This document shows, one piece after another, positions 22,202-54,994 of a DNA stretch of 55,744 nt. Within the stretch, counting starts at the first letter, position 1. The number at the start of each line of letters is the position of its first letter. The notes beneath the pieces were generated by a model. It did no database searches. It had not been told where the DNA came from and saw nothing but the letters and a program-made list of their open reading frames with translations. A program made the translations under genes and the position numbers. The DNA comes from Actinobacteria bacterium UBA7524 (lineage in GTDB: Bacteria > Actinomycetota > Coriobacteriia > Anaerosomatales > UBA912): NCBI GenBank assembly GCA_002478275.1, contig DLMY01000007.1, positions 1 to 55,744 on the forward strand, written 5' to 3'.

Positions 22202-24751
22202 TCACGGTCGTCGCAGGGCGGCCTTGATATCGAACTCCAGGTCGTAGGGCACCGCCGCCGGCCCTCCCAGGAACCTCAGCGATTCGACACTCGCTGAGTT
22301 CGCCCGGAGCCACGTCTCAAGTCTGGGCCCGGACCCGTCTGCAAGGATCAAAGGCGCTCTGTGCATGCCGAGGAGCGGTCCTGCAGCCAGTGAGTCGGGG
22401 AACGCGCGTCCTGTTGCCACACCCAGCGTCGAGTACGTGAGGACTCCCGACCCGACACCGTATCCGGCGACGACCCGGGACGTCTCGTACCGGTCCATGC
22501 CGGCGAGCCGCACAGGAGAGGGCAGCAAGGCCGCCACCTGTGATGAGATCGCCTGTTCGCCACCTATGATGAGGGACGACGTCGGTCCCAGTGTCGAGAG
22601 CGCGCGCGACGTAGCGGAAGGTATGCTTCCCCTCCGGCTGAGCAGTATCGGATAGCCAGCCGCGGCGGACAGCGAGGATGTGGACAGTGCGTCAGGGTAG
22701 TTCTCTCCGGAAGCGACGATGACGCGGCCATCAGGCAGCGATCCGAGCAGCGTCCGGACCTGTATGGCCACGAGCCTGGCTGTATCGTAGCGGTCTGATC
22801 CGGCAAGCCGGGTGACGATCGCCGAATGAGGCAGTTGGTCGATGGCGTCCTCGACCGCCCGGGAGACGGCCTGCTCACCCCCTACGATGTAGATGCGCTG
22901 GGGACCGAGTCGCATGATCTCGTCTCGAACCGTCAACGACAGTCTGTCTGCACGAGTGAGCAGCACCGGCGCCTCGGCCGCCGCGGCCAAAGCGCTTGCA
23001 GTCAGGCCGTCTGGCCAGTTCTGTCCTGATGCGATGACCAGGGCCGGTGCTGATACCGGGTAGGACGCCTCGCTTATCGCGGCTGCTGTCCTGTATCGAT
23101 CGGCTCCTTCGTGCCGTACCGATGTGAGCTGTTGAAGCCCGGTTGCGGGTTTGACCTGTTGGGACGCAGGAGCCTGCACCCCCCAGCGGTCGGTCGCGGT
23201 CGAGCGGACGTAGACCGTATGCGTGGTGTCCCCGGAAAGCGGCAGTCTGCCGGTGCGGGCGGTGGTGGCGTACTCGGGTCCTCCCTCGTAACCGTACGCG
23301 TAAGTCACGTTTGCGCCTGCAGCGGCCGTCCAGCTCAGCGAGACCTCCAATCCCGTTCCGGGGTCCACGGTCAGGGCGACCGGTGCCTGGGCCGAGACCG
23401 TACGCGTCATCTCCCCGTACAGTCCGTACGCGTCGAAGCGGCCGTAACCCGTCTCGTTGTCGAAGCCCGGCAGTGGGCCGTAGGAGTCGTCTGCGGACTG
23501 TCGGGCGAATTGCAGCATCTGGCTGCGTGACAGGTCGGGAACGAGCGACCATGCATAGGCGAGGGAACCCGAGACGAGCGGAGCGGCGAAGGAGGTACCC
23601 GACCTTGTGTTGGAGGCCACCCCGCCCGGATTGAGCGTCCAGACGTACTGGCCGGCGGTCACCACGTCCATCTCCGGTCCGTAGCTGGAGAATGTGGAGC
23701 GCTGGCCGGTCTCCGGGTCGAGGGACCCTACGGTAAGTACCCCCTGGCACGCTGCCGGATACAGTACGTGCGGATATGAGGTCGCGCCGTCGTTGCCGCT
23801 CGCGGCGACCACAAGCGAACCGCGTGCTGCGCAGTAGTCGACCACTTGCTGCCACAGATCGCGGACGGCAAGGTCGGGGACGGTACCTTCCACCCCGCCT
23901 GAGATCAGCGTCGCCCGGTGCCCGAGGGAGAGGCTGATGATCTTCGCCCCACGGTCCGCCGCGTCCATCATGGCCGTCATCACATCCACGGTGTCGCCGC
24001 TCTGGTCGCTCTGAAGCACCCGGTACACGAGTATGCGCGAGTCGAGCCGGTGCAGGGTGCCGGCCATGCCGAACCCGTTGTGGCTCTGCGCACCGATGAT
24101 GCTCGCCACCCGGGTGCCGTGAAATCCCGCCGTGTTGGCGTCGGCCGTGTCGGTGTCTTGGTCGATGTAGTCGTATACCGGCACGAACCTCCCCGAATCC
24201 TCTATCACAGACATGGTCACACCGGTGTCCATCGTCGCGACGGTGATCCCTCTGCGTCCGGGTTCGAGCTTGAACGAGTCGCCGTACAGTGTCGCGTCCC
24301 ACACACTCTCGAGAGCGCTTGCGTGCGCGTACTGAGGAACCGGCCCCAGGTACAGCCGCTGGTCCCTGAATTGCGGTCCACCTGTGACGAGCCAGTCGTA
24401 CCGGGTGTCGTTCGGTGGGACGGTCGCGAACGCCCGCACCTTTCGGACCGGGGCTGCGGCGAGGACTTCGGGCATCGTGCGGATCTCCTCGGCGAGGAGA
24501 GACGGATTCTTGCCTGGCGTCGGGCGCACCTCCAGCAGCGGGGCCTTGCGCATGCGTACCGTGGCGATGTCAGGGTCTGAGGACAGCGTGCCGATGGCGC
24601 GGGTCGCGTCGGCAGCGCGGCTGTAGAGTACGGCGACGGTTTCTGGCTGTTGCTCGGCGGCGGGTGGGCCTTCGCCGAGAGCGGTAGCGGGAAGCGCGAG
24701 CACAACGAGCAGCAGGGTGGTGAGCAAGCGTATGGACCCGGGTGTCGTCAT
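22202..24751 (-). CDS. secreted S8 (subtilisin-like) serine peptidase with three cell-wall-binding repeat 2 (CW_binding_2) domains
   Basis: Signal peptide from ATG 24751 (LLLVVLALPATALG); catalytic DTG, HGT and SGTSFAAP; oxyanion AASGN; C-terminal GADRYRTA / GSDRYDTA / GMDRYETS with ASGxNxPDxL repeats. Confidence 0.9.
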   Translation of the reverse strand: MTTPGSIRLLTTLLLVVLALPATALGEGPPAAEQQPETVAVLYSRAADATRAIGTLSSDPDIATVRMRKAPLLEVRPTPGKNPSLLAEEIRTMPEVLAAAPVRKVRAFATVPPNDTRYDWLVTGGPQFRDQRLYLGPVPQYAHASALESVWDATLYGDSFKLEPGRRGITVATMDTGVTMSVIEDSGRFVPVYDYIDQDTDTADANTAGFHGTRVASIIGAQSHNGFGMAGTLHRLDSRILVYRVLQSDQSGDTVDVMTAMMDAADRGAKIISLSLGHRATLISGGVEGTVPDLAVRDLWQQVVDYCAARGSLVVAASGNDGATSYPHVLYPAACQGVLTVGSLDPETGQRSTFSSYGPEMDVVTAGQYVWTLNPGGVASNTRSGTSFAAPLVSGSLAYAWSLVPDLSRSQMLQFARQSADDSYGPLPGFDNETGYGRFDAYGLYGEMTRTVSAQAPVALTVDPGTGLEVSLSWTAAAGANVTYAYGYEGGPEYATTARTGRLPLSGDTTHTVYVRSTATDRWGVQAPASQQVKPATGLQQLTSVRHEGADRYRTAAAISEASYPVSAPALVIASGQNWPDGLTASALAAAAEAPVLLTRADRLSLTVRDEIMRLGPQRIYIVGGEQAVSRAVEDAIDQLPHSAIVTRLAGSDRYDTARLVAIQVRTLLGSLPDGRVIVASGENYPDALSTSSLSAAAGYPILLSRRGSIPSATSRALSTLGPTSSLIIGGEQAISSQVAALLPSPVRLAGMDRYETSRVVAGYGVGSGVLTYSTLGVATGRAFPDSLAAGPLLGMHRAPLILADGSGPRLETWLRANSASVESLRFLGGPAAVPYDLEFDIKAALRRP

Positions 24752-24902
24752 CTCTGCCTTCCTGTCGCGCGATGGGTGGGTCGCGATGACCGGCTGCCGG
24801 CGTTCACGTGGGTGTGGCGTGTGGTGTACAGCGTAGATTGTATCGGACATCTTGGCCGAACACCCTTGGCAGCAAGGTTCGGGCCTGTTAATGTCGGTTC
24901 GA

Positions 24903-25638
<736 letters not shown>

Positions 25639-41727: not shown

Positions 41728-43962
41728 ATGCCACAGCAGTATGCAAAGGAGACCCGTATGAGAGCCGGCACCGCCCTGTCATCGCACGCCGATATGGTGC
41801 GTGGCGGAGTTGCGGCTGTCGTGCTCGGGGATTCCGTCGCGTTCGCGGTGTTGCGGGCGACGGCCGGCGAACAGCCCGGCGGCGTCGCGGTCCAGATCCT
41901 GTATCTGTTACCGATGGCGCTGACCGTCGCGCTCGCACTCATGTGCATGAAGGTGTCGCAGGGCCAGGAGAGGCGTTTCTGGGCGATGCTGTCGTTGGCG
42001 GCTTCGGTCATCCTGGTATCCGAGACCGTGTTCAGCGTCACGTTGTTGCAGACCGGAGCTCCCGGCAACTGGCTGCTCGCATCGGTGGTTCTCACTCTCG
42101 GGGCGGCAGGCCTGTTCATCCCGGCGATGATCCTGACCACACGTGTCTATGGTGTTCCCTGGACGTTGAGGACGCGCTATCTGGCCGAAGTCATGCTCTT
42201 CGGGTTGCTGTTGTTCTTGGTGGTTCTATTCACCGTTGTCGCGCCGTGGTATACCTCGCTTGGCCTGCCGCTGATCGAGGCGGTGCTCGCATCGATCTAC
42301 AGCACAGTAGGTCTCCTGATCCTGACGGGTCTGCTGCTCAACACCTCCTCGCTCAGGCTCGACCGCTGGCGGTCATGGGAACGCATCGTGGCTGTGGGTG
42401 TGGGTCTGTACTCGCTTGCGACGGTAGTCTCGCCTGCGTGGCATGGTTCTGCGGCCGGTGTCTTGCCGCAAGTGTGGGCACATCTGGTCGAGATACTGTG
42501 GGTCGTAGGCTTCGCCACCGTGGCCATCGGGGCGGCCCACCGTCTCGTCACGAGCCGGGGGACCTCGGTCACGCGTGCTTTCTATCCCTATTCGGGCGTC
42601 GAACAGGTCTGGGCTACACGCGTGACGATCGCGATCAGTCTCGCTGCCGTTCCCGTTCTGGTCGTCGGGGCGGGGATGGCTCAGTCGGTCACGGCATCCC
42701 ATGTCCTGGTGACTACGGCCACGCTGATGAGCGTGATGCTCAGTGCCCGCTTCGGCGTTCAGAGCATCGAGTACGGGCTGCTCACTTCCGAATCGACGAC
42801 TGACTCGCTGACCGGACTCGGGAACCATCGCAGCCTCTACGACAGCCTTGCAGCAGGTATAGACAGGGCCGGACATATCTCCGATACGCTCGCAGTCGTC
42901 TCCATGGACGTCGACGGCTTCAGGAAGGTCAACGTGGAGCGCGGCAACACCGGCGGCGACGAGTTCCTCAGAATACTCGGGGAACGCCTGGCAGACCTGG
43001 TGGAACCCCCATTCAGGCTGTGCCGTCGCGCGAGCGACGAGTTCGTCGCGATCCTGCCCGGTGCCGCGTTGCCGGAAGCCATCGCCACGGGGGAGCGTCT
43101 GCGCAGCGAGGTCCTGGCTTCGTCGATCGAGTACGGAGTCCCGATGACCGCCTCTGTGGGCGTCGCGGCCTTTCCGCAGCACTCAGTCGATGCTGCTGAC
43201 CTGTTGCGAATGGCCGATACCGCGCAGTTCTGGGCCAAGTGCAGGGGGCGCGACCGGGTCCTTGTCTACGATCCCTCGCTTTCAAGTCCGCTCGAGGGCT
43301 CGAACGGGCTCACGTGCGATGCCACTACCGGTGATCTGGCCACGCTACGTTCCCTGGCGCTCGCCGTGGACGTCCGTGAATCCGCGACTCGCAACCATTC
43401 ACGGAACGTCGCCAGATTGGTCGTTCTCCTCGGCAGGGAGATGGGTCTGGCCGAGGAGCACCTGACGCTGCTGGAACAGGCCGCGATCCTACACGATGTG
43501 GGCAAGATCGGTGTGTCCGACCGCGTGCTGGGCAAGCCGACGTCGTTGACGCCGATTGAGACCGAGCACGTCCGCGAGCATCCTCTGCTTGGCGAGCGGC
43601 TGCTGGCGTCTGCCGGCATGCGTGAGGTGCTGCCGTGGGTCAGGGGTCACCACGAGCGGTGGGACGGGAAAGGCTATCCCGATGGCCTGGCGGGCCAGGA
43701 CATCCCGCTGGAGGCCAGGATCCTTGCGGTGTGCGATGCGTATGACGTGATCACGTCGGACAGGCCGTACCGTGCCAGGCTGTCCCATCAGGCCGCGCTA
43801 CAGGAGATCGACCTGTCGATGGGCTCTCAGTTCGATCCTATGGTCGCCGAGGTGTTCATCCGCATGATGTCTGCGGACCAGCATCACCGCCCGGGGGTGG
43901 GCGACGTGGCCGGGTTCAGAGATGGTTTCGCGGAACCCAGCGGTTCCGTACAGCCTTCCTGA
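41728..43962 (+). CDS. membrane protein with a degenerate GGDEF domain and an HD-GYP phosphodiesterase domain
   Basis: Many N-terminal TMs; TDSLTGLGN, DVDGFRKVN and A-site RASDEF; HDVGK and HHERWDGKGYP. Confidence 0.88.
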   Translation: MPQQYAKETRMRAGTALSSHADMVRGGVAAVVLGDSVAFAVLRATAGEQPGGVAVQILYLLPMALTVALALMCMKVSQGQERRFWAMLSLAASVILVSETVFSVTLLQTGAPGNWLLASVVLTLGAAGLFIPAMILTTRVYGVPWTLRTRYLAEVMLFGLLLFLVVLFTVVAPWYTSLGLPLIEAVLASIYSTVGLLILTGLLLNTSSLRLDRWRSWERIVAVGVGLYSLATVVSPAWHGSAAGVLPQVWAHLVEILWVVGFATVAIGAAHRLVTSRGTSVTRAFYPYSGVEQVWATRVTIAISLAAVPVLVVGAGMAQSVTASHVLVTTATLMSVMLSARFGVQSIEYGLLTSESTTDSLTGLGNHRSLYDSLAAGIDRAGHISDTLAVVSMDVDGFRKVNVERGNTGGDEFLRILGERLADLVEPPFRLCRRASDEFVAILPGAALPEAIATGERLRSEVLASSIEYGVPMTASVGVAAFPQHSVDAADLLRMADTAQFWAKCRGRDRVLVYDPSLSSPLEGSNGLTCDATTGDLATLRSLALAVDVRESATRNHSRNVARLVVLLGREMGLAEEHLTLLEQAAILHDVGKIGVSDRVLGKPTSLTPIETEHVREHPLLGERLLASAGMREVLPWVRGHHERWDGKGYPDGLAGQDIPLEARILAVCDAYDVITSDRPYRARLSHQAALQEIDLSMGSQFDPMVAEVFIRMMSADQHHRPGVGDVAGFRDGFAEPSGSVQPS

Positions 43963-44855: not shown

Positions 44856-46645
44856 CAGGCAAGCACCTCCTTGACCCACTCGGTGACCTGTTCGGGCGAG
44901 AAAGGTCGGCCGTCGTAGCGATGGAGCGTGTGGTCGACATCGCGTAGACACTGCTCGCGTACGAGACCCTGGAGCTGGCCGGTGTGGTTGCCCTCGATGA
45001 TCGCGGTGGTGCCTGCGGCGTCCAGGAACGTCGAGACCTCCTCGGCGGGGAAGGGCCAAACGGTGACGACCTGCATCACGTTGATGGTGACGCCGTCTTC
45101 GGCGAGCCAATCGAGGGCCTGGAGCACGGGCATCTTGGTGGTGCCGAAGAGCAGTATCGAGAGATCGGCGCTCTCGGGTCCGAAGCGAGCCGGCGGCGGG
45201 ACGAGGGTGCGAGCGAGTTCGAGCTTGCGCATGCGCTTGTCGTTCTGCGCGACGCGGGTGGGGGCGTCCTCACCCGGGGCGCCCCAACCGACCTCGTCGT
45301 GCTCGTAGGAGTTGACTATCTGTTGCGCACCCTTCACTCCGGGCAGCGCCCGGACGCTCAGGCCGTCGTCGGTGATCTTGTAGCGAAGGTAGCGGCCGTC
45401 TTCGGCGAGTGCCTCAGGATGATCGGCGATATCGCCTTCGGCAACCAGCTTTCCACGCTCGACGGTGACAGCCGAGGTGTCGAAGGGGGCAGTCGTGCGA
45501 CGGTTGTCGGAGAGGTAGGAGTCGCCGAGCAGGATGACGGGGGTCTGCAGCTGGTCGGCGAGGTTGAACGCCTGCCAGGTCAGGTGGAAAGCGTCGTCGT
45601 GGTCGCCGGGCGCCAGCACGACTCGCGGGAACTCGCCCTGGGCCGCATGCAGCGCGAAACGCAGGTCCGACTGTTCGGTCCAGGTGGGCAGGCCGGTCGC
45701 GGGGCCGGGGCGCGTGAACAGCCCCACCACACAGGCGCTCTCGCTCACTCCGGCGAAACCGAACGCCTCGACCATGAGCGAGAAGCCGCCGCCGGATGTC
45801 GCGCACATCGACCTGGTGCCGGCAAACGCGCCGCCGACCACCATGTTCATCGCTGCGAGTTCGTCTTCAGTGTGCTTGACGACGACTCCCTCGCGCTCGC
45901 CATGCTTGGCCATGAAGTGCAGAAGACTGGAGGCGGGCGTCATCGGGTACGCGCAGTACAGACCTACACCGGCGGCCAGTGCGCCGATGCCGAACGCTTC
46001 GTTGCCGTCGACCAACATGCGTGCTGGCCGGTCCGAAAGGGGCTGCAGGTTGTGGGGGAACGCGCAGTCGTGCTCACGCGAGAACTCGTAGCCCTTGGTG
46101 GCCGCCGCGATGTTCTGCTCTGCGATCTCGGGGGCCTTGTGTGCGAACTGCTGGCGGATCGAGTCGGCAAGCGGTTCGAGCGGGAAGCCGATGTAACCGA
46201 GTACCGCTCCGAGTGCGGCGACATTACGCATGATCTTCACACCGCCGACCTCGTAGACGATATCGTCGAGCGGCACCGGCACCAGGCAGTGGTGGTCCGC
46301 GTCGACCCCATCTACCTGCGCGGCGTCGAACGCCTTGGGGTCGAAGACGATCGCGCCGCCTTCGGTCAGCTCGTCGAGGTGCAGTCCGACGGTGGGCTCG
46401 TCGAGTGCGACCAGCACGTCGGTATCGAGCACGTGCGAGTAGATGGGTGTGTCGCTCACGCGCAGGTGGTAGGTGTTATGTCCGCCTTTGATGAGCGAGG
46501 GGTACTCGGTCAGGTCGAACGTCTCGAAGCCCGAACGCGCGAACACGCGGGCCAGTGACTGCCCAGCCGCCTTGATGCCGAACCCGGCCGGTCCACCGAT
46601 CCGGATGCGGACCTCGGTCGCTCCTTCGGGCACTTCGCGTCTCAT
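44855..46645 (-). CDS. korA: 2-oxoacid:acceptor oxidoreductase alpha(+gamma) subunit
   Basis: GGPAGFG, YPSLIKGGHN, GNEA, YPMTPAS, EDELAA, TSGGGFSLM and RPGPATGLPT; ATG at 46645 follows GGAGG. Confidence 0.93.
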   Translation of the reverse strand: MRREVPEGATEVRIRIGGPAGFGIKAAGQSLARVFARSGFETFDLTEYPSLIKGGHNTYHLRVSDTPIYSHVLDTDVLVALDEPTVGLHLDELTEGGAIVFDPKAFDAAQVDGVDADHHCLVPVPLDDIVYEVGGVKIMRNVAALGAVLGYIGFPLEPLADSIRQQFAHKAPEIAEQNIAAATKGYEFSREHDCAFPHNLQPLSDRPARMLVDGNEAFGIGALAAGVGLYCAYPMTPASSLLHFMAKHGEREGVVVKHTEDELAAMNMVVGGAFAGTRSMCATSGGGFSLMVEAFGFAGVSESACVVGLFTRPGPATGLPTWTEQSDLRFALHAAQGEFPRVVLAPGDHDDAFHLTWQAFNLADQLQTPVILLGDSYLSDNRRTTAPFDTSAVTVERGKLVAEGDIADHPEALAEDGRYLRYKITDDGLSVRALPGVKGAQQIVNSYEHDEVGWGAPGEDAPTRVAQNDKRMRKLELARTLVPPPARFGPESADLSILLFGTTKMPVLQALDWLAEDGVTINVMQVVTVWPFPAEEVSTFLDAAGTTAIIEGNHTGQLQGLVREQCLRDVDHTLHRYDGRPFSPEQVTEWVKEVLA

Positions 46646-46742
46646 CAAGCGGGCCTCCGGTCGCGTGCGTCGTTTGTTGCACTTGAGTGAGTTTGTTCCC
46701 GTTTGAGGCCCTGTGCTCGCGAAGGCGTGCGATAATCTCCGC

Positions 46743-48017
46743 ATGACTCTCGACAGCACACATCTGGCGTCCAGTCCCGGCCTTGCCGAGGAGACCCTCG
46801 CGGCTCCGTTGCGCGACCCCGACGATGCGCGCAAGACGGTCGTGCTCGGTGTCACGGGCTGCATCGCCGCATACAAGGCGTGCGAGGTGGTGCGCGCTCT
46901 CGTCAAGGACGGCCATCGCGTGGTCGTGGTGATGACCGAGGCGGCCACGCGCTTCGTCGGTCCACTGACGTTTCGCACGCTTACCGGCGAGCCGGTCGTG
47001 ACCTCGCTTTGGGACGACCCCGACGCCGCTCCCGTGCACCACATCTCGCTTGCGGAGGAAGCCGACGTCATCGCCCTCGTCCCGTGCACCGCCAACGTCA
47101 TCGCGAAGGTCGCCGGCGGCACAGCCGACGACATGCTCACCACCACCGTGCTCGCCAGCGAGGCGCCGCTCGTCGTCGCGCCGGCGATGAACACGCACAT
47201 GTGGCGCGATGAGCTCACGCAGGCCAACGTCGAGACGCTGCGCACGCGCGGGGCGATTATCGTGGAGCCGGGGACCGGCGACCTCGCATGCGGCGACGTA
47301 GGCGAGGGACGCCTTGCACCTGCCGAGGAGATCCTCGACGCGATCAGGACCGAGCTCGACCGCTGCGGCGACCTTGCTGGCGTTCGCATGCTGGTGACCG
47401 CCGGTCCGACCTACGAGCCGCTCGATGCGGTGCGTTTCCTCGGCAATCGGAGCAGCGGGCGCACGGGATACGCCATCGCCGAGGAGGCCGCCAGGAGGGG
47501 AGCGAGGGTGACGTTGGTCTCGGGACCCACGGCGTTGCCTGATCCATTCGGTGCGAGTACCGTGCGGGTCGAGACGGCAGCCGAGATGCTGGATGCGGCG
47601 CTTGCCGCATACGACGATATCGATGTGGTGATCGCGACGGCGGCGGTCTCGGATTTCGCTCCCGTGGATGCGAACGCAGGCAAGATCAAGAAGGGTGACG
47701 CTCCGGCGACGATCGAGCTGGCGCCGACAGAGGACATCCTCGCGCGGCTGGCGGCGGACAAGGGCGAGCGGCTGCTGGTGGGTTTTGCGGCCGAGACTTC
47801 GGACGTGAGCGCGTACGCGCGCGAGAAGCTACAGCGCAAGTCACTCGACCTCGTGGTCGCCAACGATGTCTCGCTGCCGGGTCTGGGGTTCGGATCGAAG
47901 CGTAATCGGGTCGTGCTCATCGATGCGCACGGGGAGTGGGAGTTGCCCGAGATGGACAAGCGGATGCTCGCGCGCGAGCTCCTCGATGAGGTCGTCACGC
48001 GACTTGCGAGTCGGTAG
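46743..48017 (+). CDS. coaBC: bifunctional phosphopantothenoylcysteine decarboxylase / phosphopantothenate-cysteine ligase
   Basis: GCIAAYK, PAMNTHMW, LACGDVGEGRL, TAGPT, NRSSG, AAVSDF, VGFAAET and VAND. Confidence 0.96.
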   Translation: MTLDSTHLASSPGLAEETLAAPLRDPDDARKTVVLGVTGCIAAYKACEVVRALVKDGHRVVVVMTEAATRFVGPLTFRTLTGEPVVTSLWDDPDAAPVHHISLAEEADVIALVPCTANVIAKVAGGTADDMLTTTVLASEAPLVVAPAMNTHMWRDELTQANVETLRTRGAIIVEPGTGDLACGDVGEGRLAPAEEILDAIRTELDRCGDLAGVRMLVTAGPTYEPLDAVRFLGNRSSGRTGYAIAEEAARRGARVTLVSGPTALPDPFGASTVRVETAAEMLDAALAAYDDIDVVIATAAVSDFAPVDANAGKIKKGDAPATIELAPTEDILARLAADKGERLLVGFAAETSDVSAYAREKLQRKSLDLVVANDVSLPGLGFGSKRNRVVLIDAHGEWELPEMDKRMLARELLDEVVTRLASR

Positions 48018-48032
48018 GAGAGGGAGATCACC

Positions 48033-48389
48033 ATGGTCCTGTCTGGCACTGCGAAGAAGCTCTCCGTCTACATCGGTGAGGCCGACCGCTATGAAGATAA
48101 GCCGCTCTACGAGGCGCTGATCGAGCAGGCGAGGATCGCCGGGTGCGCAGGGGCGACGGTGTTGCGGGGCGTCGCAGGTTTCGGGGCGACGAGCCGTGAG
48201 CACATCAAGCACGGCATCCGCATGTCGGTCGACCTGCCGCTCATGGTTCATGTGATCGACACGCCTGACCGCATCACCGCACTTGCCGAGGTCTACGGCG
48301 AGATGGTCACAGACGGGCTCATCACCGTCGAAGACGTCAACGTGCTCATGTACCGTGGCGGCGTGACCGGCGGGCCCGAGGAAGAGTAG
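48033..48389 (+). CDS. DUF190 (PII-like) protein
   Basis: YIGEADRY..KPLYEA...AGATVLRGVAGFG...DLP. Confidence 0.88.
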   Translation: MVLSGTAKKLSVYIGEADRYEDKPLYEALIEQARIAGCAGATVLRGVAGFGATSREHIKHGIRMSVDLPLMVHVIDTPDRITALAEVYGEMVTDGLITVEDVNVLMYRGGVTGGPEEE

Positions 48390-48391
48390 CG

Positions 48392-48431
48392 AAACAACGA
48401 CGCCCCGCCTGCGGTTAGACAGACGGGGCGT
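48392..48431 (-). terminator. intrinsic terminator of the cytochrome gene (possibly bidirectional)
   Basis: On the minus strand, ACGCCCCGTCTG-loop-CAGGCGGGGCGT is followed by CGTTGTTT. Confidence 0.7.
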
Positions 48432-48455
48432 GATCGAATCACGTATCGAGGTGCG

Positions 48456-51281
48456 TCAGCGCGCCTTCACCCTGATCGGCACGCTGGTGTAGCCCGGTGC
48501 TTTGACTTGCACAAGACAGTCTGTCTTGCCTATTCCAGAGGGTACGCGGCACCGGATACGTGCATCCGTCCATTGCGAGTACTCCGTCGCCGGAATCCCA
48601 TTGAATGTTACGACCGTAGGCCCTTGGGCCGGACCGAAGTTGATGCCATCAACGAAGGTCCAATCTCCCGGCTTGACCGTTGAGGCGGAGATCTTGGTTA
48701 TCCGGCATCCGACCGCACATGTTGTGGATGCGGTGCCGCCCTCGGTGGTGATCGTGACAGTTCGCATTCCGGGTGGGGTCTTGGGGACCGTGACGCGCAG
48801 AGTCGAATCGTCGACAACCGTGAAGTCGGCGAGTATGGGCGGCGCTTCTGCGCCGGTCAGCAAGACGGAGGCCGTATCCCAGGAGAAGCCGCTGCCTTTG
48901 ACCATGACGGTCTCTCCCGGAAGTGCGGACTGCGGTATCAGCTCATCGATGACCGGTGCCGGCACGAACGTGAAGCCAAGCGGCATAGTCGGGCCGGCAT
49001 CCGTGTGGACGACGACATCGACGGCTCCTGCAGGCAAGCCGGCAGGGACCACCGCGGTGATAGACGAGTCCGTCCACTGCAGCACCGCGGCGGGCTCCTC
49101 GCCAAAGTCGATGCTGCCACCGGCCGCCTCGGCGCTCGGACCGAAGTTCGTGCCCTCGATGATGACCTCCGTGCCCGAAGGACCACGTGCTGGTGAGAGC
49201 GATGTGGCCTCGCAGGTGACGGTGAACTGCGTGAGGGGGCTGGGTCCGTGCCCGATATCAAGACCGACGTCGTAGGTGCCGGGGGTGAGCTTAGGTACCA
49301 GGAACGTCATCTGGTTCCATTGCCTGTTGATCGGCTCGACGTATACACCGTTCTGGCCCATGCGCGAGACGATGATCCCTTCGGCGAGCCACAACCCGTC
49401 GCCTGTCATCGTCACCAGCGTGCCAGGAAGACCTGACTGCGTATCGAGCTGAAGATTCTGCGGTCTCCACGGGTCCGGGTGGCATGAGTAGCATGAGTCC
49501 ACCGCTCTCAGTGTGTCAGAACCGACAGAAGGTTGGTGGCATGGTTCGCATCGCAAGTCGCCGTACGAGATGATGTCGATCAAGTTGGGGGCGTGGCATC
49601 GAGCACATTCGCTGGTGAAGTCGTGCGCCTGGTAACCGATGGTGTCGAACGCGACACTAGCGGTGCCCGAATCCGTCACCACCCATGCCGTGTAGTGTTT
49701 GCCGAACGGCAACGTGATGAGCCCCTCTGAGCCAGCGTCGGAGGCGATGAGTGCCCCGCTACCGGCGTCCGCGACTCCCCAGCCTGTCATCTCGTCGTTC
49801 GCGCATGCAATCCGTGTATTCGCGTCGGTTCCGAGGAACGACTCGATCTGCGCGGAGACGTCGAGCTGTAGATTCGGTGTATGGCATTTGTCACACGGTG
49901 CGGTCGTGGGGCAGGGCGGTCCGAGCACGGTGAACGCAGGCGCTGGGACGGTCTGCCAGCCGATCACTACCTCCAGGGAGTAAGTGCCTGACGGGAGCTC
50001 AGGTACCTGGAACGTGAACTCGTAGTCACTCTTGACCGTGCAGGGCACGGTGGCCGTTCCGTTGGGACCCGATAACGTCACGGATACTGCCCCGAGCAGC
50101 CAATTGCCCGATGCGGTCACTACCTCGCCCGGGTAGCCACTCTCTGGATCGATGGAGTTGACGCCCCACGTCCCGTGGATGGAGTGGCAAGCCCGGCAGT
50201 CGATGTTCCTGGCCTCCATGGCCTCTATCACACTCGGGATGTTCGACTTGTGACACCAGTCGCACTCGGAGTGATGGGTGATCTGGACGTTGCTGCCATG
50301 ACAGTACACACAGGCGCTTGAGGGCGCGATGTGCGAGAACGGTGAGGTGACTGTCACTGAAGCCTCGGCGCGAGTACCGAACGAATCCAGGAGTACCAGC
50401 GTGTACACTCCTGGCGTCAGTTGAGCGATCGTGACCTGCATGCACGTGTCGGATTCGATCAGGCATTCGGCTGCGGTCTCCTCGGCTGCCGAGGACACGA
50501 AGAACACATCTGTGACCTGAGTGAGTCTGCTCCCGGTGATCTCGATGATCTGACCGACGCTGGCGGGGGAGGGCTGTATCGCCTCGATGGTGTGTGGGGT
50601 CAGTGGCGGCATCGGTCCATCGCCGTGACAGCCGGAGCACGCCTCGGAACTGGAGTTATGTCCCGCGATAGCGTGCAGGTGCTCGGCCGAATGACATCTC
50701 TGACACGCTCTGATTGGCGCGGGGTCGCCGAACGAGTGACACCACAGACATCTGGTGCTGTCCGGGAAGCTGAACGAATGGTGCGTGTCCGTCGGGTTGA
50801 GCACAGGATGGGGTTGGGCCGATGTATCGGCAATATGGCAGCCCCGGCATCGGTTGACTGTCGGAGTCCGATCGGTCGTCGGGCCGCTGGGCACTGCCGA
50901 GTTGAACGTTCCTATGAGGTCGGAAGAGTGACATCCGGCACCGGCACATTGTGGAGTGGAGGAGAGAGCCGCATCGTGGCGAGCGATCGTGTTGTGGCAT
51001 CCCGCTGTGACGCAGTTGCTCTCGATGGTGGCGAGGTAGTGTCCATCGACGAGAGTGATGTTGTGACAATCGGCGCATGGCAGTCCGAGTGCATGGTGAA
51101 GATCCGCGGAGGCTACCCCGAGGTGGCAGTTGGTGCACGTTGCGTTCTGCCCGTCCGGTCCGGCTTGATAGGCGTAGTCATACTTGCCGACCTGCTGTGG
51201 AACCGCCCCAAAGGCCGAGCCGACTCCAGTGATCAGGAGTAGCAGACAAACGGAAAGCAGCACACATAAGCGTACTCTCAT
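48456..51281 (-). CDS. secreted multiheme cytochrome c (13 CxxCH + 2 Cx4CH) with six IPT/TIG-like domains; N-terminal octaheme domain OmcZ-like
   Basis: Signal peptide MRVRLCVLLSVCLLLLITGVGSAFG. Heme motifs: CTNCH, CADCH, CVTAGCH, CAGAGCH, CRGCH, CLWCH, CQRCH, CSGCH, CVYCH, CDWCH, CRACH, CDKCH, CARCH, CEPCH, CYSCH. Repeats of the form I..i.P.sg.pG..v.i.G.nf. Confidence 0.9.
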   Translation of the reverse strand: MRVRLCVLLSVCLLLLITGVGSAFGAVPQQVGKYDYAYQAGPDGQNATCTNCHLGVASADLHHALGLPCADCHNITLVDGHYLATIESNCVTAGCHNTIARHDAALSSTPQCAGAGCHSSDLIGTFNSAVPSGPTTDRTPTVNRCRGCHIADTSAQPHPVLNPTDTHHSFSFPDSTRCLWCHSFGDPAPIRACQRCHSAEHLHAIAGHNSSSEACSGCHGDGPMPPLTPHTIEAIQPSPASVGQIIEITGSRLTQVTDVFFVSSAAEETAAECLIESDTCMQVTIAQLTPGVYTLVLLDSFGTRAEASVTVTSPFSHIAPSSACVYCHGSNVQITHHSECDWCHKSNIPSVIEAMEARNIDCRACHSIHGTWGVNSIDPESGYPGEVVTASGNWLLGAVSVTLSGPNGTATVPCTVKSDYEFTFQVPELPSGTYSLEVVIGWQTVPAPAFTVLGPPCPTTAPCDKCHTPNLQLDVSAQIESFLGTDANTRIACANDEMTGWGVADAGSGALIASDAGSEGLITLPFGKHYTAWVVTDSGTASVAFDTIGYQAHDFTSECARCHAPNLIDIISYGDLRCEPCHQPSVGSDTLRAVDSCYSCHPDPWRPQNLQLDTQSGLPGTLVTMTGDGLWLAEGIIVSRMGQNGVYVEPINRQWNQMTFLVPKLTPGTYDVGLDIGHGPSPLTQFTVTCEATSLSPARGPSGTEVIIEGTNFGPSAEAAGGSIDFGEEPAAVLQWTDSSITAVVPAGLPAGAVDVVVHTDAGPTMPLGFTFVPAPVIDELIPQSALPGETVMVKGSGFSWDTASVLLTGAEAPPILADFTVVDDSTLRVTVPKTPPGMRTVTITTEGGTASTTCAVGCRITKISASTVKPGDWTFVDGINFGPAQGPTVVTFNGIPATEYSQWTDARIRCRVPSGIGKTDCLVQVKAPGYTSVPIRVKAR

Positions 51282-51318
51282 GGTCCCCCCCACGGTCTTA
51301 TGAGTTCTTTCGACAGGA

Positions 51319-51327
51319 ATGGTAACA
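51319..51327 (-). promoter_or_regulatory. extended -10 promoter of the cytochrome gene
   Basis: Minus-strand TGtTACCAT about 38 nt upstream of the ATG. Confidence 0.45.
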
Positions 51328-51386
51328 CTTTGCCGTGAGGGAGAGGGTGTCTGGTGAATGTGGGTGCTCTCCGTCCCCCAGCACCC

Positions 51387-51415
51387 TTGCGTCGAACCCT
51401 GACGAGCCGTACTAT
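51387..51415 (+). promoter_or_regulatory. tRNA promoter
   Basis: TTGCGT-N17-TACTAT. Confidence 0.55.
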
Positions 51416-51455
51416 ACTGCCTTGCCGCCAAGTGCTTTCGGGCCAGCGGCGGAAA

Positions 51456-51532
<77 letters not shown>

Positions 51533-51572
51533 GCACACAACAGGGCACGTGATGCGTGTTCCTGACGAAGTG

Positions 51573-51601
51573 ACGGGACGGCCAAGCGGCCGTCCCGTTT
51601 C
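51573..51601 (+). terminator. terminator downstream of tRNA-Pro
   Basis: ACGGGACGGCC-aagc-GGCCGTCCCGT followed by TTC. Confidence 0.7.
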
Positions 51602-51619
51602 GCGTTCCGGCACCCATGT

Positions 51620-51666
51620 TTGCACGAGGCTGAATCGGCGGTTAGTATACTGAACATGTGTTCAGT
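51620..51666 (+). promoter_or_regulatory. tetR promoter (probably leaderless) with a palindromic operator
   Basis: TTGCAC-N17-TAGTAT, ATG 7 nt downstream; ACTGAACA-tg-TGTTCAGT at 51649-51666. Confidence 0.65.
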
Positions 51667-52321
51667 GAAGCGCCGAGACGATCGGACTGCAGCCGCGCGC
51701 ATCCGCGATGCGGCCGTTGAGTTGTTCGGCCGTGAGGGATTCCACAAGGCGACCGTCCGCGACATCGCTAAGGACGCCGGGGTCTCGCCGGCCCTCGTGC
51801 TGCATCACTACGGCTCGAAGTCGGGGCTTCGCGACGCGTGCGATGAATGGGTCGTCGAGGAGTTCGCGCGCGCAAGGACCGAAATGGTCGAGTCGGGAAC
51901 TTCCACCGACCCGTTCGCGGCGATGGCCTTGATCCAGGGCGAGGAAGTGCGGATGGCATACCTCCTGAGATCGCTTCGCGAGGGAACGCCAGCGGCCGGA
52001 CGCCTCTTCGACGGTCTGGTGGAGCACTCCCTTCGCATGATGGAGCAGGGAGTGCGAACAGGCGAACTGCGGCCGAGCCGGAACCTTCACGATCAAGCCG
52101 TGTTGCTGGTTGCATGGCAGTTCGGTGGGCTGCTGCTGCAGGGCGATGTCGCGCGCGCCTTCGGGACCGAGCTGAACTCCCGTGAGATGAAGGAGCGCTA
52201 TATCCGCGCCGTTCTCGAAGTGATGACGCACGGTGTGTTCTCCGACAGTCGCTACGAAGACGCCTGGAACGAACTTGAACCGACCGAAAGCGTAAGTGAA
52301 GGAGCGATGGAGCATGACTGA
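51656..52321 (+). CDS. TetR/AcrR family transcriptional regulator
   Basis: ARIRDAAVELFGREGF..ATVRDIAKDAGVSPALVLHHYGSK helix-turn-helix. Confidence 0.93.
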   Translation: MCSVKRRDDRTAAARIRDAAVELFGREGFHKATVRDIAKDAGVSPALVLHHYGSKSGLRDACDEWVVEEFARARTEMVESGTSTDPFAAMALIQGEEVRMAYLLRSLREGTPAAGRLFDGLVEHSLRMMEQGVRTGELRPSRNLHDQAVLLVAWQFGGLLLQGDVARAFGTELNSREMKERYIRAVLEVMTHGVFSDSRYEDAWNELEPTESVSEGAMEHD

Positions 52322-53237
52322 CATCATTCAGACCGTCGATCTTGAGAAGAGCTTCGGCAAGGTGCGGGCGCTGGACGGGCTCACTCTCAGTGTTCAGCAG
52401 GGCGAGGTACATGGCTTCCTTGGTCCCAACGGTGCCGGCAAGACCACTACGATCCGGGTTCTGCTCGGACTGCTCAGGGCCGATGCAGGCAAGGCGACGC
52501 TTTTCGGGCGCGATCCATGGGATGATGCAGTCGCGTTGCATCGTCGGCTGGCCTACGTGCCCGGCGATGTCGAGCTGTGGCCGAACCTCACGGGTGGTGA
52601 GGCGATAGATCTCCTCGGCAGACTCAGGGGGGATGCCGAAAAGTCACGCCGGGACACTCTGATCGAACGCTTCGGTCTGGACCCGACGAAGAAGGGCCGC
52701 ACGTACTCGAAGGGCAATCGGCAGAAGGTGGCACTCATCGCCGCCCTGGCCTCGAAGGCCGGGCTGCTCCTGCTGGACGAGCCGACCGCCGGTCTGGATC
52801 CACTGATGGAGGCGATCTTCCAGGAGGTCATCCGCGACATGAAGGCGGAGGGTCGCACGGTGCTTCTGTCGAGTCACATCCTCGCACAGGTCGAGGTACT
52901 TGCCGATCGGATCTCCATCATCCGTCAGGGCAAGATCGTCGAGACCGGTTCGCTGCGGGACTTGCGGCATCTGACCCGTACCACGTTCATGGTCGAGACG
53001 GCACAGCCTGCCGACGCGATCGCGCAGATGCCCGGTGTCCACCATTTCGAGGTTGCAGACGGGCAGGTTCGCTTCGACGTGGACTCCGAGCATCTCGATG
53101 CGGTCGTGCGTCATCTCTCGGGGCTGGGCGTGCAGGCCATGTCCTCTCGACCCCCGACACTGGAGCAGCTGTTGTTGCGCCATTACGGCGATCAGATCGT
53201 CCCCGAAGCCGAGGAGAGCGTGGGGGTGGCACGATGA
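52314..53237 (+). CDS. ABC-2 type exporter ATP-binding protein (TnrB2/tetronasin-resistance-like)
   Basis: GPNGAGKTT, YSKGNRQK, LLDEPT and SSH. Confidence 0.92.
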   Translation: MTDIIQTVDLEKSFGKVRALDGLTLSVQQGEVHGFLGPNGAGKTTTIRVLLGLLRADAGKATLFGRDPWDDAVALHRRLAYVPGDVELWPNLTGGEAIDLLGRLRGDAEKSRRDTLIERFGLDPTKKGRTYSKGNRQKVALIAALASKAGLLLLDEPTAGLDPLMEAIFQEVIRDMKAEGRTVLLSSHILAQVEVLADRISIIRQGKIVETGSLRDLRHLTRTTFMVETAQPADAIAQMPGVHHFEVADGQVRFDVDSEHLDAVVRHLSGLGVQAMSSRPPTLEQLLLRHYGDQIVPEAEESVGVAR

Positions 53238-54994
53238 GTGCCGCAGCAGCGGACGGTCGCGTACACACCCTGACAGGCACGTGGCAGCTTGTGAGGCTGA
53301 TGCTGCGCCGCGACCGCGTCAAGCTGCCATCCTGGATCCTGGGTGGCACCATCTTCTGGGCGTACTACACCCAGGCCCCCCAGCGCGCCTACCCGTCCGC
53401 GGAGGACCTGCAAAGCATCGTGACGATGGCGAGCGTGCCGACGGGTCGAATGTGGTTCGGGCCGACCTACTTTCTGGACAACGTGAGTCATGCGACCTTC
53501 ATTCCCGCAGGTTACGGACTCTATCAGCTGCTCTTCGTCGCCCTTATGAGCATCCTGCTCGTCATCCGCCACACTCGGGTCGAGGAACAGACCGGTCGCT
53601 CCGAGCTCGTGCGCGCCAATGCGGTAGGTCGCCATGCACCCCTCACCGCTGCACTGCTGGTCGCCGTCATGGCGAACGGCGTGTTGGCTGTACTGTCGGC
53701 GTTGATCATGATCGCCGACCCGATATTCGCGACTGAAGGCTCGCTGCTCTTCGCCGCAGGATGCTTCGCCACGGGGATGGCCTTCGCGGGACTCACCGCG
53801 ATCGTCGTTCAACTGACCGAGTACTCCCGCACCGCAACGAGTCTCGCTGCCGGAGGGGGCCTCGGGGTGGCTTTCGTGCTCAGAGCGCTCGGAGACATGG
53901 CGGACCCGCATGGGAGCTTCGTCTCCTGGCTTTCGCCGCTCGCCTGGGCACAGCAGACTGCTCCCTTTGTACTGGATCGCTGGTGGCCGCTCGCGGTCGC
54001 GCTCGCGTTCACGGTCGCAACGGCGATCGCAGGATACGCGCTCTCGACTCGTCGAGACGTCGGAGCGGGCATGCTCGCGGTTCGACGTGGGAAGGCGCGG
54101 GCAGTGGGATGGTTGGGCTCTCCGCTCGGTCTCGCCTGGCGTCTTGAACGGAAGGCTATCACGTGGTGGGCGGTGAGCATGTTCGTTGCGGGGGTGTCGA
54201 TGGGGGCGTTCGCTGATGCCAGCATAGACATGCCCGACATCATCGTGGATGCGATGGGCGGTGCGGAGAACATCGTCGCGGGCTACCTCGCCTACATGGG
54301 CGTCTTCATGGCGACGATCATCGCGATCTACGGGGTGCTTGCCATGCAGGGCATCAGTTCGGAGGAAACAGGTGGTCGTGGTGAGCCGTTGCTGGCGACC
54401 GGAGTCAGCCGCTGGGCGTGGCTCGGATCGAACATCGCGGTGGGCTCGTTCGGGGTGCTGGCCGTGATGGGTGCCACGGGGTTGGGCATGGGCATGGGCG
54501 CTGCATCCGTTGGCGCCGGGAACGATCTGGTCTGGGACACGACCGTGGCGTATCTGAATCACGTCCCAAGTATCCTGGTCGTAGTGGGTGCATCGGCGTT
54601 GTTGTTCGGGTTGGCGCCACGGTGGCAGGGCCTTGCGTGGGTAGTCGTCGGGTACGGCTTCGTCGTGGGCTCCTTCGGTCCCGTGCTGGGGTGNNNNNNN
54701 NNNNNNNNNNNNNNNNNNNNNNNNNNNNNNNNNNNNNNNNNNNNNNNNNNNNNNNNNNNNNNNNNNNNNNNNNNNNNNNNNNNNNNNNNNNNNNNNNNNN
54801 NNNNNNNNNNNNCCTTCGGTCCCGTGCTGGGGTGGCCCGACTGGCTCTTCGAGTTGTCACCTTTCGAGCACGCGGCCCGGATGCCGGTGGAACCGTTCGA
54901 CGCTTGGCCGGTCATCATCTTGTCAGCGATCGCGGTGATGCTCGCCGCTGTCGGTCTCGTCACTTTCAGGAGGCGAGATATCAGGTCGGTGTAG
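53234..54994 (+). CDS. ABC-2 type exporter permease (TnrB3-like), spans an N-gap
   Basis: LRRDR, RHTRVEEQTGRSEL, SPLAW, EETGGRGEPLLA, SPF and FRRRD; many TMs. Confidence 0.88.
   Translation: MSAAAADGRVHTLTGTWQLVRLMLRRDRVKLPSWILGGTIFWAYYTQAPQRAYPSAEDLQSIVTMASVPTGRMWFGPTYFLDNVSHATFIPAGYGLYQLLFVALMSILLVIRHTRVEEQTGRSELVRANAVGRHAPLTAALLVAVMANGVLAVLSALIMIADPIFATEGSLLFAAGCFATGMAFAGLTAIVVQLTEYSRTATSLAAGGGLGVAFVLRALGDMADPHGSFVSWLSPLAWAQQTAPFVLDRWWPLAVALAFTVATAIAGYALSTRRDVGAGMLAVRRGKARAVGWLGSPLGLAWRLERKAITWWAVSMFVAGVSMGAFADASIDMPDIIVDAMGGAENIVAGYLAYMGVFMATIIAIYGVLAMQGISSEETGGRGEPLLATGVSRWAWLGSNIAVGSFGVLAVMGATGLGMGMGAASVGAGNDLVWDTTVAYLNHVPSILVVVGASALLFGLAPRWQGLAWVVVGYGFVVGSFGPVLGXXXXXXXXXXXXXXXXXXXXXXXXXXXXXXXXXXXXXXXXXFGPVLGWPDWLFELSPFEHAARMPVEPFDAWPVIILSAIAVMLAAVGLVTFRRRDIRSV
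54694..54812. other. assembly gap (119 N)
   Basis: Run of N flanked by a duplicated 22-mer CCTTCGGTCCCGTGCTGGGGTG. Confidence 0.97.

Follow-up and report, generated by a model that had tools for sequence, protein, structure and literature searches.

The sequence analysed here (hereafter the window) is a stretch of 55,744 nucleotides from Actinobacteria bacterium UBA7524 (assembly GCA_002478275.1, contig DLMY01000007.1, positions 1 to 55,744), and this report concerns one minus-strand gene within it, which encodes a predicted multiheme cytochrome whose first domain resembles OmcZ. A preliminary description of this DNA, made from the letters and their translations, had been confined to 50625-51281 (-), which corresponds to residues 1-219 of a 941-amino-acid open reading frame (ORF) at 48456-51281 (-). 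The long minus-strand frame extends over 48456-51431, and its likely start is the ATG at 51281, with a G-rich ribosome-binding stretch 5' of it. The predicted protein comprises, in this order, a signal peptide, an octaheme domain, a Pro-rich linker, a first IPT/TIG domain (TIG1), triheme module A, TIG2, one heme site with about 90 residues of no known family, triheme module B and TIG3-TIG6 (Table 1). The Sec signal with a mature start AVP...GKYD that had been described is present on a by-eye reading (mature N-terminus AVPQQVGKYD), and so is the GDGPMPPLTP linker with an IPT/TIG-like domain behind it.

The octaheme domain contains six CXXCH and two CX4CH motifs by pattern count: CTNCH 49, CADCH 69, CVTAGCH 90 (heme III), CAGAGCH 112 (heme IV), CRGCH 145, CLWCH 178, CQRCH 193 and CSGCH 215. 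Seven CXXCH motifs lie downstream of the linker (324, 340, 362, 463, 559, 578 and 597), which gives a total of 15 heme sites. The eight motifs of the preliminary description therefore stand for residues 26-219, as do its landmarks (HHAL, PVLNPTDTHH, PIRACQRCH...HLH and GH...CSGCH are all found in the translation), while the seven downstream sites and the six TIG domains had gone unmentioned.

Table 1. Parts of the cytochrome gene and the borders of its locus (positions in the window).
Feature	Residues	Position	Strand	Basis
DUF190 gene, left border of insertion, after CoaBC in relatives		48033..48389	+	gene-order comparison
Terminator-like hairpin, 13-bp stem, 25 nt past the stop codon (48456-48458)		48400..48431	-	sequence
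IPT/TIG domains 3-6	605-941	48459..49469	-	PF01833 E 0.0014, 5.1e-13, 2.6e-10, 2.5e-4
Triheme module B (CARCH, CEPCH, CYSCH)	556-604	49470..49616	-	motif count
Monoheme site CDKCH 463 and about 90 residues	459-555	49617..49907	-	motif count, Pfam scan
IPT/TIG domain 2	376-458	49908..50156	-	PF01833 E 3.2e-5
Triheme module A (CVYCH, CDWCH, CRACH)	319-375	50157..50327	-	motif count
IPT/TIG domain 1	232-318	50328..50588	-	PF01833 E 0.0017; single scan scores 18.8 bits, below the cut-off (20.9)
Pro-rich linker GDGPMPPLTPHT, candidate processing site without aromatic residue	220-231	50589..50624	-	translation
OmcZ-type octaheme domain	26-219	50625..51206	-	motif count, alignment, profiles
Sec-type signal peptide MRVRLCVLLSVCLLLLITGVGSAFG	1-25	51207..51281	-	translation; hydrophobic core and AxG|A site (..AFG|AVPQQ) judged by eye
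tRNA-Pro(GGG), right border of insertion, directly 3' of DUF190 in relatives		51456..51532	+	gene-order comparison

The features of OmcZ that the preliminary description had listed were found on the sequence of 7lq5, which together with 8d9m represents OmcZ in the Protein Data Bank (PDB): QQHHAL, DTHH, PIRQCEVCH..SLHNI and GHIGNNWDCQGCH. The chain 7lq5 also begins with AVP (AVPPPPVNQ), as had been stated, but the shared AVP is not what aligns; the conserved N-terminal motif is VNQxxGxxD in OmcZ and VPQxxGxxD in a group of compact relatives described below. A phmmer search of the PDB with residues 121-235 returned only two matches at E <= 10, both of them OmcZ (7lq5_A 6.8e-5; 8d9m_A 1.7e-4), with DTHH and PIRxCxxCH..LH aligned, and the significance of single-sequence phmmer comparisons with OmcZ is restricted to this C-terminal half of the domain. 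Among 1.84 billion cluster representatives, residues 26-235 matched 43 at E <= 1e-3 (best non-query match 2.5e-17), including two without any CXXCH that are spurious, repeat-driven noise. One of these relatives, P0015, is an OmcZ ortholog (8d9m_A match at E 1.3e-175), and all eight heme motifs of the actinobacterial domain line up with P0015 and the other relatives in a 30-row alignment. A profile of the domain and 24 relatives, from which every OmcZ-type row was excluded, retrieved OmcZ as its top PDB match (8d9m_A 5e-61; 7lq5_A 1.4e-39 over residues 7-253 of 258), and the next heme protein followed at 2e-18. In the opposite direction, hhalign of residues 26-235 taken singly against a 9-row OmcZ-type profile gave 99.6% and E 7.3e-25 over 189 columns (query 1-197), so the profile alignment that had been proposed as a check is significant and runs end to end.

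Against common descent stands the alternative that the likeness is only the generic similarity of Cys/His-rich multihemes, and several results weigh in that direction. Heme-rich composition inflates profile E-values (unrelated multiheme cytochromes reach 1e-13 to 2e-18 against the family profile), an ESM Atlas search gave cytochrome c3/c7 clusters only (best score 0.87, a lead), residues 26-225 taken singly did not return OmcZ from the PDB (sole match 6lod_A, E 0.11), and the whole protein reached 7lq5 only at E 0.06, among TIG matches. The domain has no close relative, the best being 34-41% identical. The generic explanation does not account well for the colinearity of all eight hemes at the same spacing (e.g., 15 residues from the His of heme III to the Cys of heme IV in both proteins), for the matching residues outside the heme motifs (VxQxxGxxD, DTHH, PIRxC, LH.I and GH), or for a composition-adjusted BLASTP match of the domain to P0015 (41% identity over 83 residues, E 3e-16). 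The E-values for OmcZ in the profile search are 20-40 orders of magnitude better than those of any other heme protein, and we take common descent as settled: the octaheme domain is almost certainly homologous to OmcZ, a generic resemblance is highly improbable, and the divergent OmcZ homolog proposed earlier is borne out.

Mapping to the residues of 7LQ5 (numbering and roles as given in PMC13748539) revealed that seven of the eight distal His positions of OmcZ are kept, the candidates in the octaheme domain being His 62, 63, 102, 167, 168, 203 and 208. H62-H63 in LHHAL correspond to the pair H40-H41 (ligands of hemes II and III) and occupy invariant alignment columns, H167-H168 in TDTHH to the pair H182-H183 (hemes VI and VII), and H203 (HLHAI), H208 (AGH) and R191 (PIRAC) match H215 (heme VIII), H241 (heme V) and R203. 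The conservation of the distal ligands, which the preliminary description had wanted checked, thus holds except for one ligating His, replaced by R101: R101-H102 takes the place of the pair H96-H97 (hemes I and IV), which is broken, at the same spacing to both flanking heme motifs as in OmcZ. The position of R101 is His in all 24 relatives of alignment A2, and an assembly error in the window can be discounted because a Logan contig agrees at every base. In addition, S88 (in ESNC) stands in place of R85 before heme III, the heme II salt-bridge Arg of OmcZ. Since R101 replaces a ligating His and S88 a bridging Arg, one heme may be differently ligated or absent; the spare His 81, 158 and 201 could stand in for the lost ligand. 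That the two CX4CH sites are real heme sites is supported by the recurrence of CX4CH in the compact group (shared by P0021, P0025, P0037 and P0040; several members have it at heme III, and P0040 at both hemes III and IV). CX4CH heme sites also occur in tetraheme cytochrome c3.

The AlphaFold2 model of the domain (41 alignment rows) had a pLDDT of 59 and a pTM of 0.50. The structural comparison suggested earlier gave a divided answer: Foldseek against the PDB produced one match at E <= 1e-3, and this was 8d9m (E 4.3e-4), but with a TM score of 0.43 and a root-mean-square deviation (rmsd) of 19.6, so that structural support for the OmcZ relationship is weak; VIA-align gave Z 5.9 and rmsd 4.3 over 121 residues. 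As a control, the true ortholog P0015 was folded, and its heme domain came out worse, below pLDDT 50, and matched 8d9m at TM 0.20 and rmsd 19.9, a sequence-like signal only. Because AlphaFold2 fails even on this ortholog, heme-free prediction cannot judge the OmcZ fold, and the structure matches were given little weight either way. A three-copy complex prediction of the octaheme domain (score 0.00, mark 0.42) speaks neither for nor against binding.

The OmcZ family has been defined from 90 proteins in six groups, gathered by blastp at 1e-20 (PMC13748539). Its members share three His-His pairs (7LQ5 H40-41, H96-97 and H182-183), R85 before heme III, R203, H215 and H241, and four "core quadrangle" regions (R1 DGHY[VI]P, R2 [LI]HNI[EQ], R3 GxGH[IL]G and R4 DCxGCH); cleavage follows a bulky aromatic residue, and serine protease genes adjoin (PMC13748539). 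The context in which OzpA cleaves the OmcZ precursor lies after heme VIII (PMC13748539; bioRxiv 10.1101/2023.08.01.549754). With OmcZ of Geobacter sulfurreducens (GSU2076; 7LQ5, 8D9M) the actinobacterial protein shares the Sec signal, eight hemes in the same order, the His-His pairs after hemes I and V, the GH before heme VIII, PIRxCxxCH...LH at heme VII including the Arg (R191), and a loop followed by Ig-like domains C-terminal to the octaheme domain. However, identity in aligned columns is about 34%, and the actinobacterial domain is about 60 residues shorter; about 25 residues are missing between hemes VII and VIII. Heme II is CX14CH in OmcZ and CXXCH here, and hemes III and IV are CX4CH here; the second His-His pair is Arg-His, and the Arg before heme III is Ser. 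R1 is absent from its place after heme IV (a DGHY sits elsewhere, at residues 79-82), while R2 reads LHAIA, R3 AGHNSS and R4 ACSGCH, so that only the His and CxGCH are retained. OmcZ has two TIG domains, whereas the actinobacterial protein has six, interleaved with seven extra hemes; moreover, its gene is not adjoined by an ozpA-type protease or prolyl isomerase gene, and its host likely lacks an outer membrane.

A similar picture emerges from OmcZ2 of "Ca. Methanoperedens vercellensis", with which the protein has in common the octaheme core, an Ig-like C-terminal region and a host without outer membrane (PMC13748539). The 90-member family shows OmcZ-type cores surviving at about 30% identity in different domains of life, but its members keep all three His-His pairs and all four core quadrangle regions, and their genes stand beside serine proteases (PMC13748539), which is not the case here. 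In a tree of the domain (30 rows), the four OmcZ-type rows formed one clade (SH-aLRT 93), and the actinobacterial protein fell outside it on a long unresolved branch. Judged by these sequence characters, the protein follows the same blueprint as OmcZ, yet it is not OmcZ in the strict sense and belongs to a compact OmcZ-like group; we place it outside OmcZ proper because of the broken His-His pair, the loss of the Arg and of the DGHY region, the lack of an adjacent protease gene and the seven hemes in what would be the "pro-region".

Proteins of the compact group (P0002-P0043) begin with VPQxxGxxD, fit eight hemes into about 200 residues with little spacing between hemes VII and VIII, and continue with TIG domains. 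Its members differ from the actinobacterial protein in having His at the position of R101 and in the order of the triheme and TIG modules. The one named relative among ten looked up is MDY6935130.1, a hypothetical protein of a Spirochaetota metagenome-assembled genome. Word-index homolog searches with residues 20-235 and 300-620 recovered the query only (1 of 847 and 1 of 6695 candidates, respectively, among proteins of 517-1647 amino acids), and a search for related loci with the protein as query found no relative in named genomes. Four members (P0003, P0005, P0010 and P0020) carry two complete octaheme domains in one chain with a TIG domain between them, and one such tandem-octaheme relative has 1490 amino acids and 32 CXXCH. 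From their sequences these chains look like polyproteins or built-in dimers of a nanowire core.

C-terminal to the octaheme domain, PF01833 matched the whole protein in six stretches with 123.6 bits (cut-off 20.9) and E 3.3e-36, and the six TIG pieces each matched when scanned singly (E 5e-13 to 1.7e-3; the single-piece scan of TIG1 covered residues 236-318). An NCBIfam scan of the protein gave sub-threshold TIG-like matches only, and residues 456-560 scanned singly matched no Pfam family at E <= 0.1. No LPXTG, CWB2, SLH or transmembrane anchor was seen at the C-terminus, either in the translation by eye or in the Pfam scan. TIG2 and TIG3 are 37% identical over 78-79 amino acids, which suggests an internal duplication of a unit of triheme module plus TIG domain. 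The triheme modules themselves showed weak matches to the OmcZ-like family HMM (module A to positions 144-193, iE 7.6e-6; module B to positions 19-74, iE 2.8e-5). The modules may have arisen as pieces of duplicated octaheme domains; alternatively, the motifs themselves may produce the matches.

The host genome bin comprises 1.81 Mb in 60 contigs and is 83% complete. In an RpoB tree that took in 80 named loci (the best 80 of at least 600 matches), the host branched within Actinomycetota as the sister lineage of Eggerthellaceae (local support values from FastTree, 99 and 97; highest identity 75%); by this marker it is a Coriobacteriia-related actinobacterium, in agreement with the preliminary description. 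WhiB was not found in the genome, which may be a gap at 83% completeness and was not used against the actinobacterial placement, and Omp85/BamA was not found in the same 83% complete bin. The window contains one complete S8 subtilase gene, 23 kb from the cytochrome gene (22202-25048 (-)), whose 948-amino-acid product has three CWB2 domains. This protease is kept at 48-57% identity in four of four same-family genomes, all without the cytochrome, and was therefore rejected as a dedicated OzpA analogue. In each of these four genomes the protease had 12-16 matches; almost all of them fall in its CWB2 region and suggest that the lineage anchors a surface proteome to wall polymers. Because of the S8-CWB2 protease, the many CWB2 proteins in relatives and the missing Omp85, a Gram-positive-type envelope is likely.

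A heme c maturation system, the presence of which had been named as a check, was identified as System II (ResB/CcsA) in four to five copies: PF01578 (CcsA-type) gave five matches and PF05140 (ResB) five matches in four frames, all above the Pfam cut-offs. The ResB/CcsA genes lie on four contigs (C30, C24, C46 and C19) beside large cytochrome genes, and since each large-cytochrome site has its own pair, the genome, about 2 Mb in size, encodes four such pairs. In total, 23 host frames carry at least two CXXCH, with a maximum of 38. Very large multihemes were located at C46:238-6156, C24:31142-34363, C30:4082-23250 and on C9; they include a 1972-amino-acid frame with 38 CXXCH and 11 CX3-4CH and a 1058-amino-acid frame with 18, and the C30 cluster consists of seven cytochrome genes and an NHL-repeat protein. 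The related order Anaerosomatales has cultured members, which are Gram-positive, reduce Fe(III) and possess 17-18 multihemes; OmcZ is not mentioned in the available portion of the report (PMC9686372). The public sequencing runs listed as containing the gene comprised one DNA run and no RNA run; the DNA run carries the label hydrocarbon metagenome and could be the sample of origin.

The gene order in two informative relatives, G113 and G129, is aminotransferase, OFOR, CoaBC, DUF190, tRNA-Pro(GGG) and CDP-alcohol phosphatidyltransferase (in two others, G261 and G265, the contig ends just past CoaBC and the copy is split over two contigs, respectively). In the host, 3.07 kb with the cytochrome gene only lie between DUF190 and tRNA-Pro; the neighbours of the gene are CoaBC, DUF190, tRNA-Pro and a TetR gene, with no protease gene adjacent. 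A Logan contig from the same run covers 46000-51501 with no differences, and because it spans this interval the link between the gene and the core genes is not an artefact of this assembly; the Logan contigs break inside tRNA-Pro (51455-51533) and therefore do not connect the gene with the TetR-ABC block. The third-codon-position GC content (GC3) of the cytochrome gene is 0.73, compared with 0.82-0.85 in CoaBC, OFOR, CarB and the aminotransferase and 0.78 in IleRS. A search of 300 other genomes of the class, four of them from the same family, did not recover the octaheme domain; 400 further genomes of the phylum yielded two weak partial matches, and the family HMM gave no match in one of these two genomes and, in the other, scattered non-colinear pieces typical of other multihemes. 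No paralog was found in the host genome. Taken together, gene order and composition indicate that the cytochrome gene entered the genome as a single-gene insertion beside tRNA-Pro.

Several further observations concern the surroundings of the insertion. A TetR regulator and an ABC transporter (ATPase and permease) are encoded at 51620-54994 (+), in the interval that separates the 3' end of tRNA-Pro from the CDP-alcohol phosphatidyltransferase gene; the GC3 of this block is 0.74-0.76, below that of core genes, and no integrase was found among its ORFs of at least 150 amino acids. A GGDEF and HD-GYP-type (HD_5) gene lies at 41728-43962 (+) between the aminotransferase and OFOR-beta genes, which are adjacent in G113, G129 and G261, and it thus represents a second lineage-specific insertion. 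The window also contains two runs of N, at 10698-10833 (136 bases, in a P-type ATPase gene) and 54694-54812 (119 bases, in the ABC permease gene), and the bases on one side of each run are repeated on the other, a pattern like that left where scaffolds are joined or a stretch is masked.

A recent single-gene insertion with GC3 below that of its core neighbours, without paralog and without counterpart in the 300 class genomes or the four same-family genomes, might be a passenger that is silent or useless to its host and kept only because the insertion is young. A scan for sigma-70-like promoters in 48000-51700 would fit this (none found, 0.8 expected), but it covered this one promoter type only. 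We consider a passenger gene rather improbable: the frame of 941 codons is intact with its 15 heme motifs, it has a G-rich ribosome-binding stretch and its own terminator hairpin, and the host possesses a maturation system and a cytochrome-rich lifestyle suited to such a protein.

The account that we favour, by a modest measure, is that the acquired gene encodes a modular secreted 15-heme cytochrome with a divergent OmcZ-type core that takes part in extracellular electron transfer; a role in extracellular electron transfer, taken by itself, is probable. The 15-heme protein would be exported by Sec, its hemes would be attached outside the membrane by the System II (ResB/CcsA) of the host, and beyond the membrane it would join the other large multiheme cytochromes of the organism in extracellular electron transfer. 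In this scheme the OmcZ-type core would supply a compact chain of eight hemes, the six TIG domains, which are Ig-like, could serve as spacers or adhesion parts, and the two triheme modules and the single heme would be further relay points. Some findings count against this account, namely the substitutions at R101 and S88 discussed above and the lack of a wall anchor, so that the surface location is assumed and the protein could simply be released; the chains with two octaheme domains, too, fit a polyprotein that is cut and thereby favour the reading considered next.

This other reading follows the classical logic of OmcZ: a self-inhibited 941-amino-acid precursor would be cut by a serine protease in the Pro-rich linker after heme VIII, and the octaheme piece of about 21 kDa would polymerise head-to-tail into a conductive filament reaching minerals, electrodes or syntrophs. 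The homology extends end to end over the filament-forming part of OmcZ, and the order of parts (signal, octaheme domain, loop and Ig-like domains) is that of OmcZ (PMC13748539). OmcZ-type filaments have been solved from Geobacter and from a methane-oxidising archaeon, Methanoperedens, at about 30% identity, i.e., the ability to form filaments survives such divergence (PMC13748539). The tandem-octaheme relatives look as if they were meant for cutting, a wall-bound S8 protease is encoded on the same contig, the cytochrome has no anchor of its own, and for Anaerosomatales, a related order with cultured members, thin appendages are described that form on ferrihydrite only (PMC9686372). However, no protease gene is adjacent, though such a gene is common in OmcZ clusters (PMC13748539), and the S8 gene, at a distance of 23 kb, is also conserved in relatives without the cytochrome; the linker GDGPMPPLTPHT contains no aromatic residue such as is found at both known OmcZ cleavage sites; of the core quadrangle, region 1 has been lost and regions 2-4 retain only part of their residues; and the piece to be discarded would hold seven hemes. 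The OzpA-type maturation put forward in the preliminary description is not upheld by these findings, and a classical OmcZ filament appears doubtful. A whole or partly trimmed surface cytochrome, acting as a conduit, is more likely, because classical maturation would remove a part containing seven of the hemes, because no protease gene travels along with the cytochrome gene and the wall-bound S8 protease is a conserved gene of the lineage, and because the linker lacks the known cleavage context.

In a bolder version, the protein might be the first cytochrome nanowire of a Gram-positive-type bacterium, derived from a 15-heme polyprotein trimmed by wall-bound proteases, with polymerisation of the octaheme piece. 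The heme whose distal His has been lost to R101 would then receive its ligand from a His in the neighbouring subunit, and the compact group might be a second nanowire branch spread by gene transfer across phyla. Joints of this kind, formed by metal coordination between subunits, are present in the OmcS and OmcE filaments; to our knowledge, OmcZ itself has no such joint. We regard this version as speculative and improbable as a whole.

Other multihemes of Gram-positive metal reducers, i.e., OcwA of Thermincola potens and those of Anaerosomatales, resemble the present protein in being secreted and matured by System II in hosts without outer membrane, and they are presumed to conduct electrons across the cell wall or past it (PMC9686372). 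They are not known to have any sequence relation to the octaheme domain. The words "Actino" and "Gram-positive" do not occur in the main text of PMC13748539, and we found no OmcZ-type cytochrome of an actinobacterium or another Gram-positive organism in the literature covered, which for most papers was the title and the start of the abstract and did not extend to the supplementary homolog list of PMC13748539. The gene omcZ has been used as a metagenome marker and was assigned to no actinobacterium in the available part of that report (PMC8446621).

Among cytochrome nanowires, OmcZ is the one associated with thick electrode biofilms of high conductivity, and its relatives have been described in Desulfuromonadia, in methane-oxidising archaea and on the Borg elements of these archaea; an OmcZ relative in an actinobacterium without outer membrane adds to the hosts known for this heme architecture, and its locus displays an OmcZ-type architecture moving as a single gene. 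About 40 clusters, mostly metagenomic, make up the compact OmcZ-like group, which is not part of the family as published, and the protein described here, compact, with two CX4CH sites, a broken His-His pair and fused heme modules, is a natural variant for testing what heme packing and polymerisation require. If polymerisation proves true, it would bear on how Gram-positive bacteria transfer electrons to minerals or partners in hydrocarbon-degrading, methanogenic settings, and if the nanowire reading holds, the compact group, with its about 40 clusters and two octaheme domains per chain in some of them, would be an unrecognised branch of nanowires.

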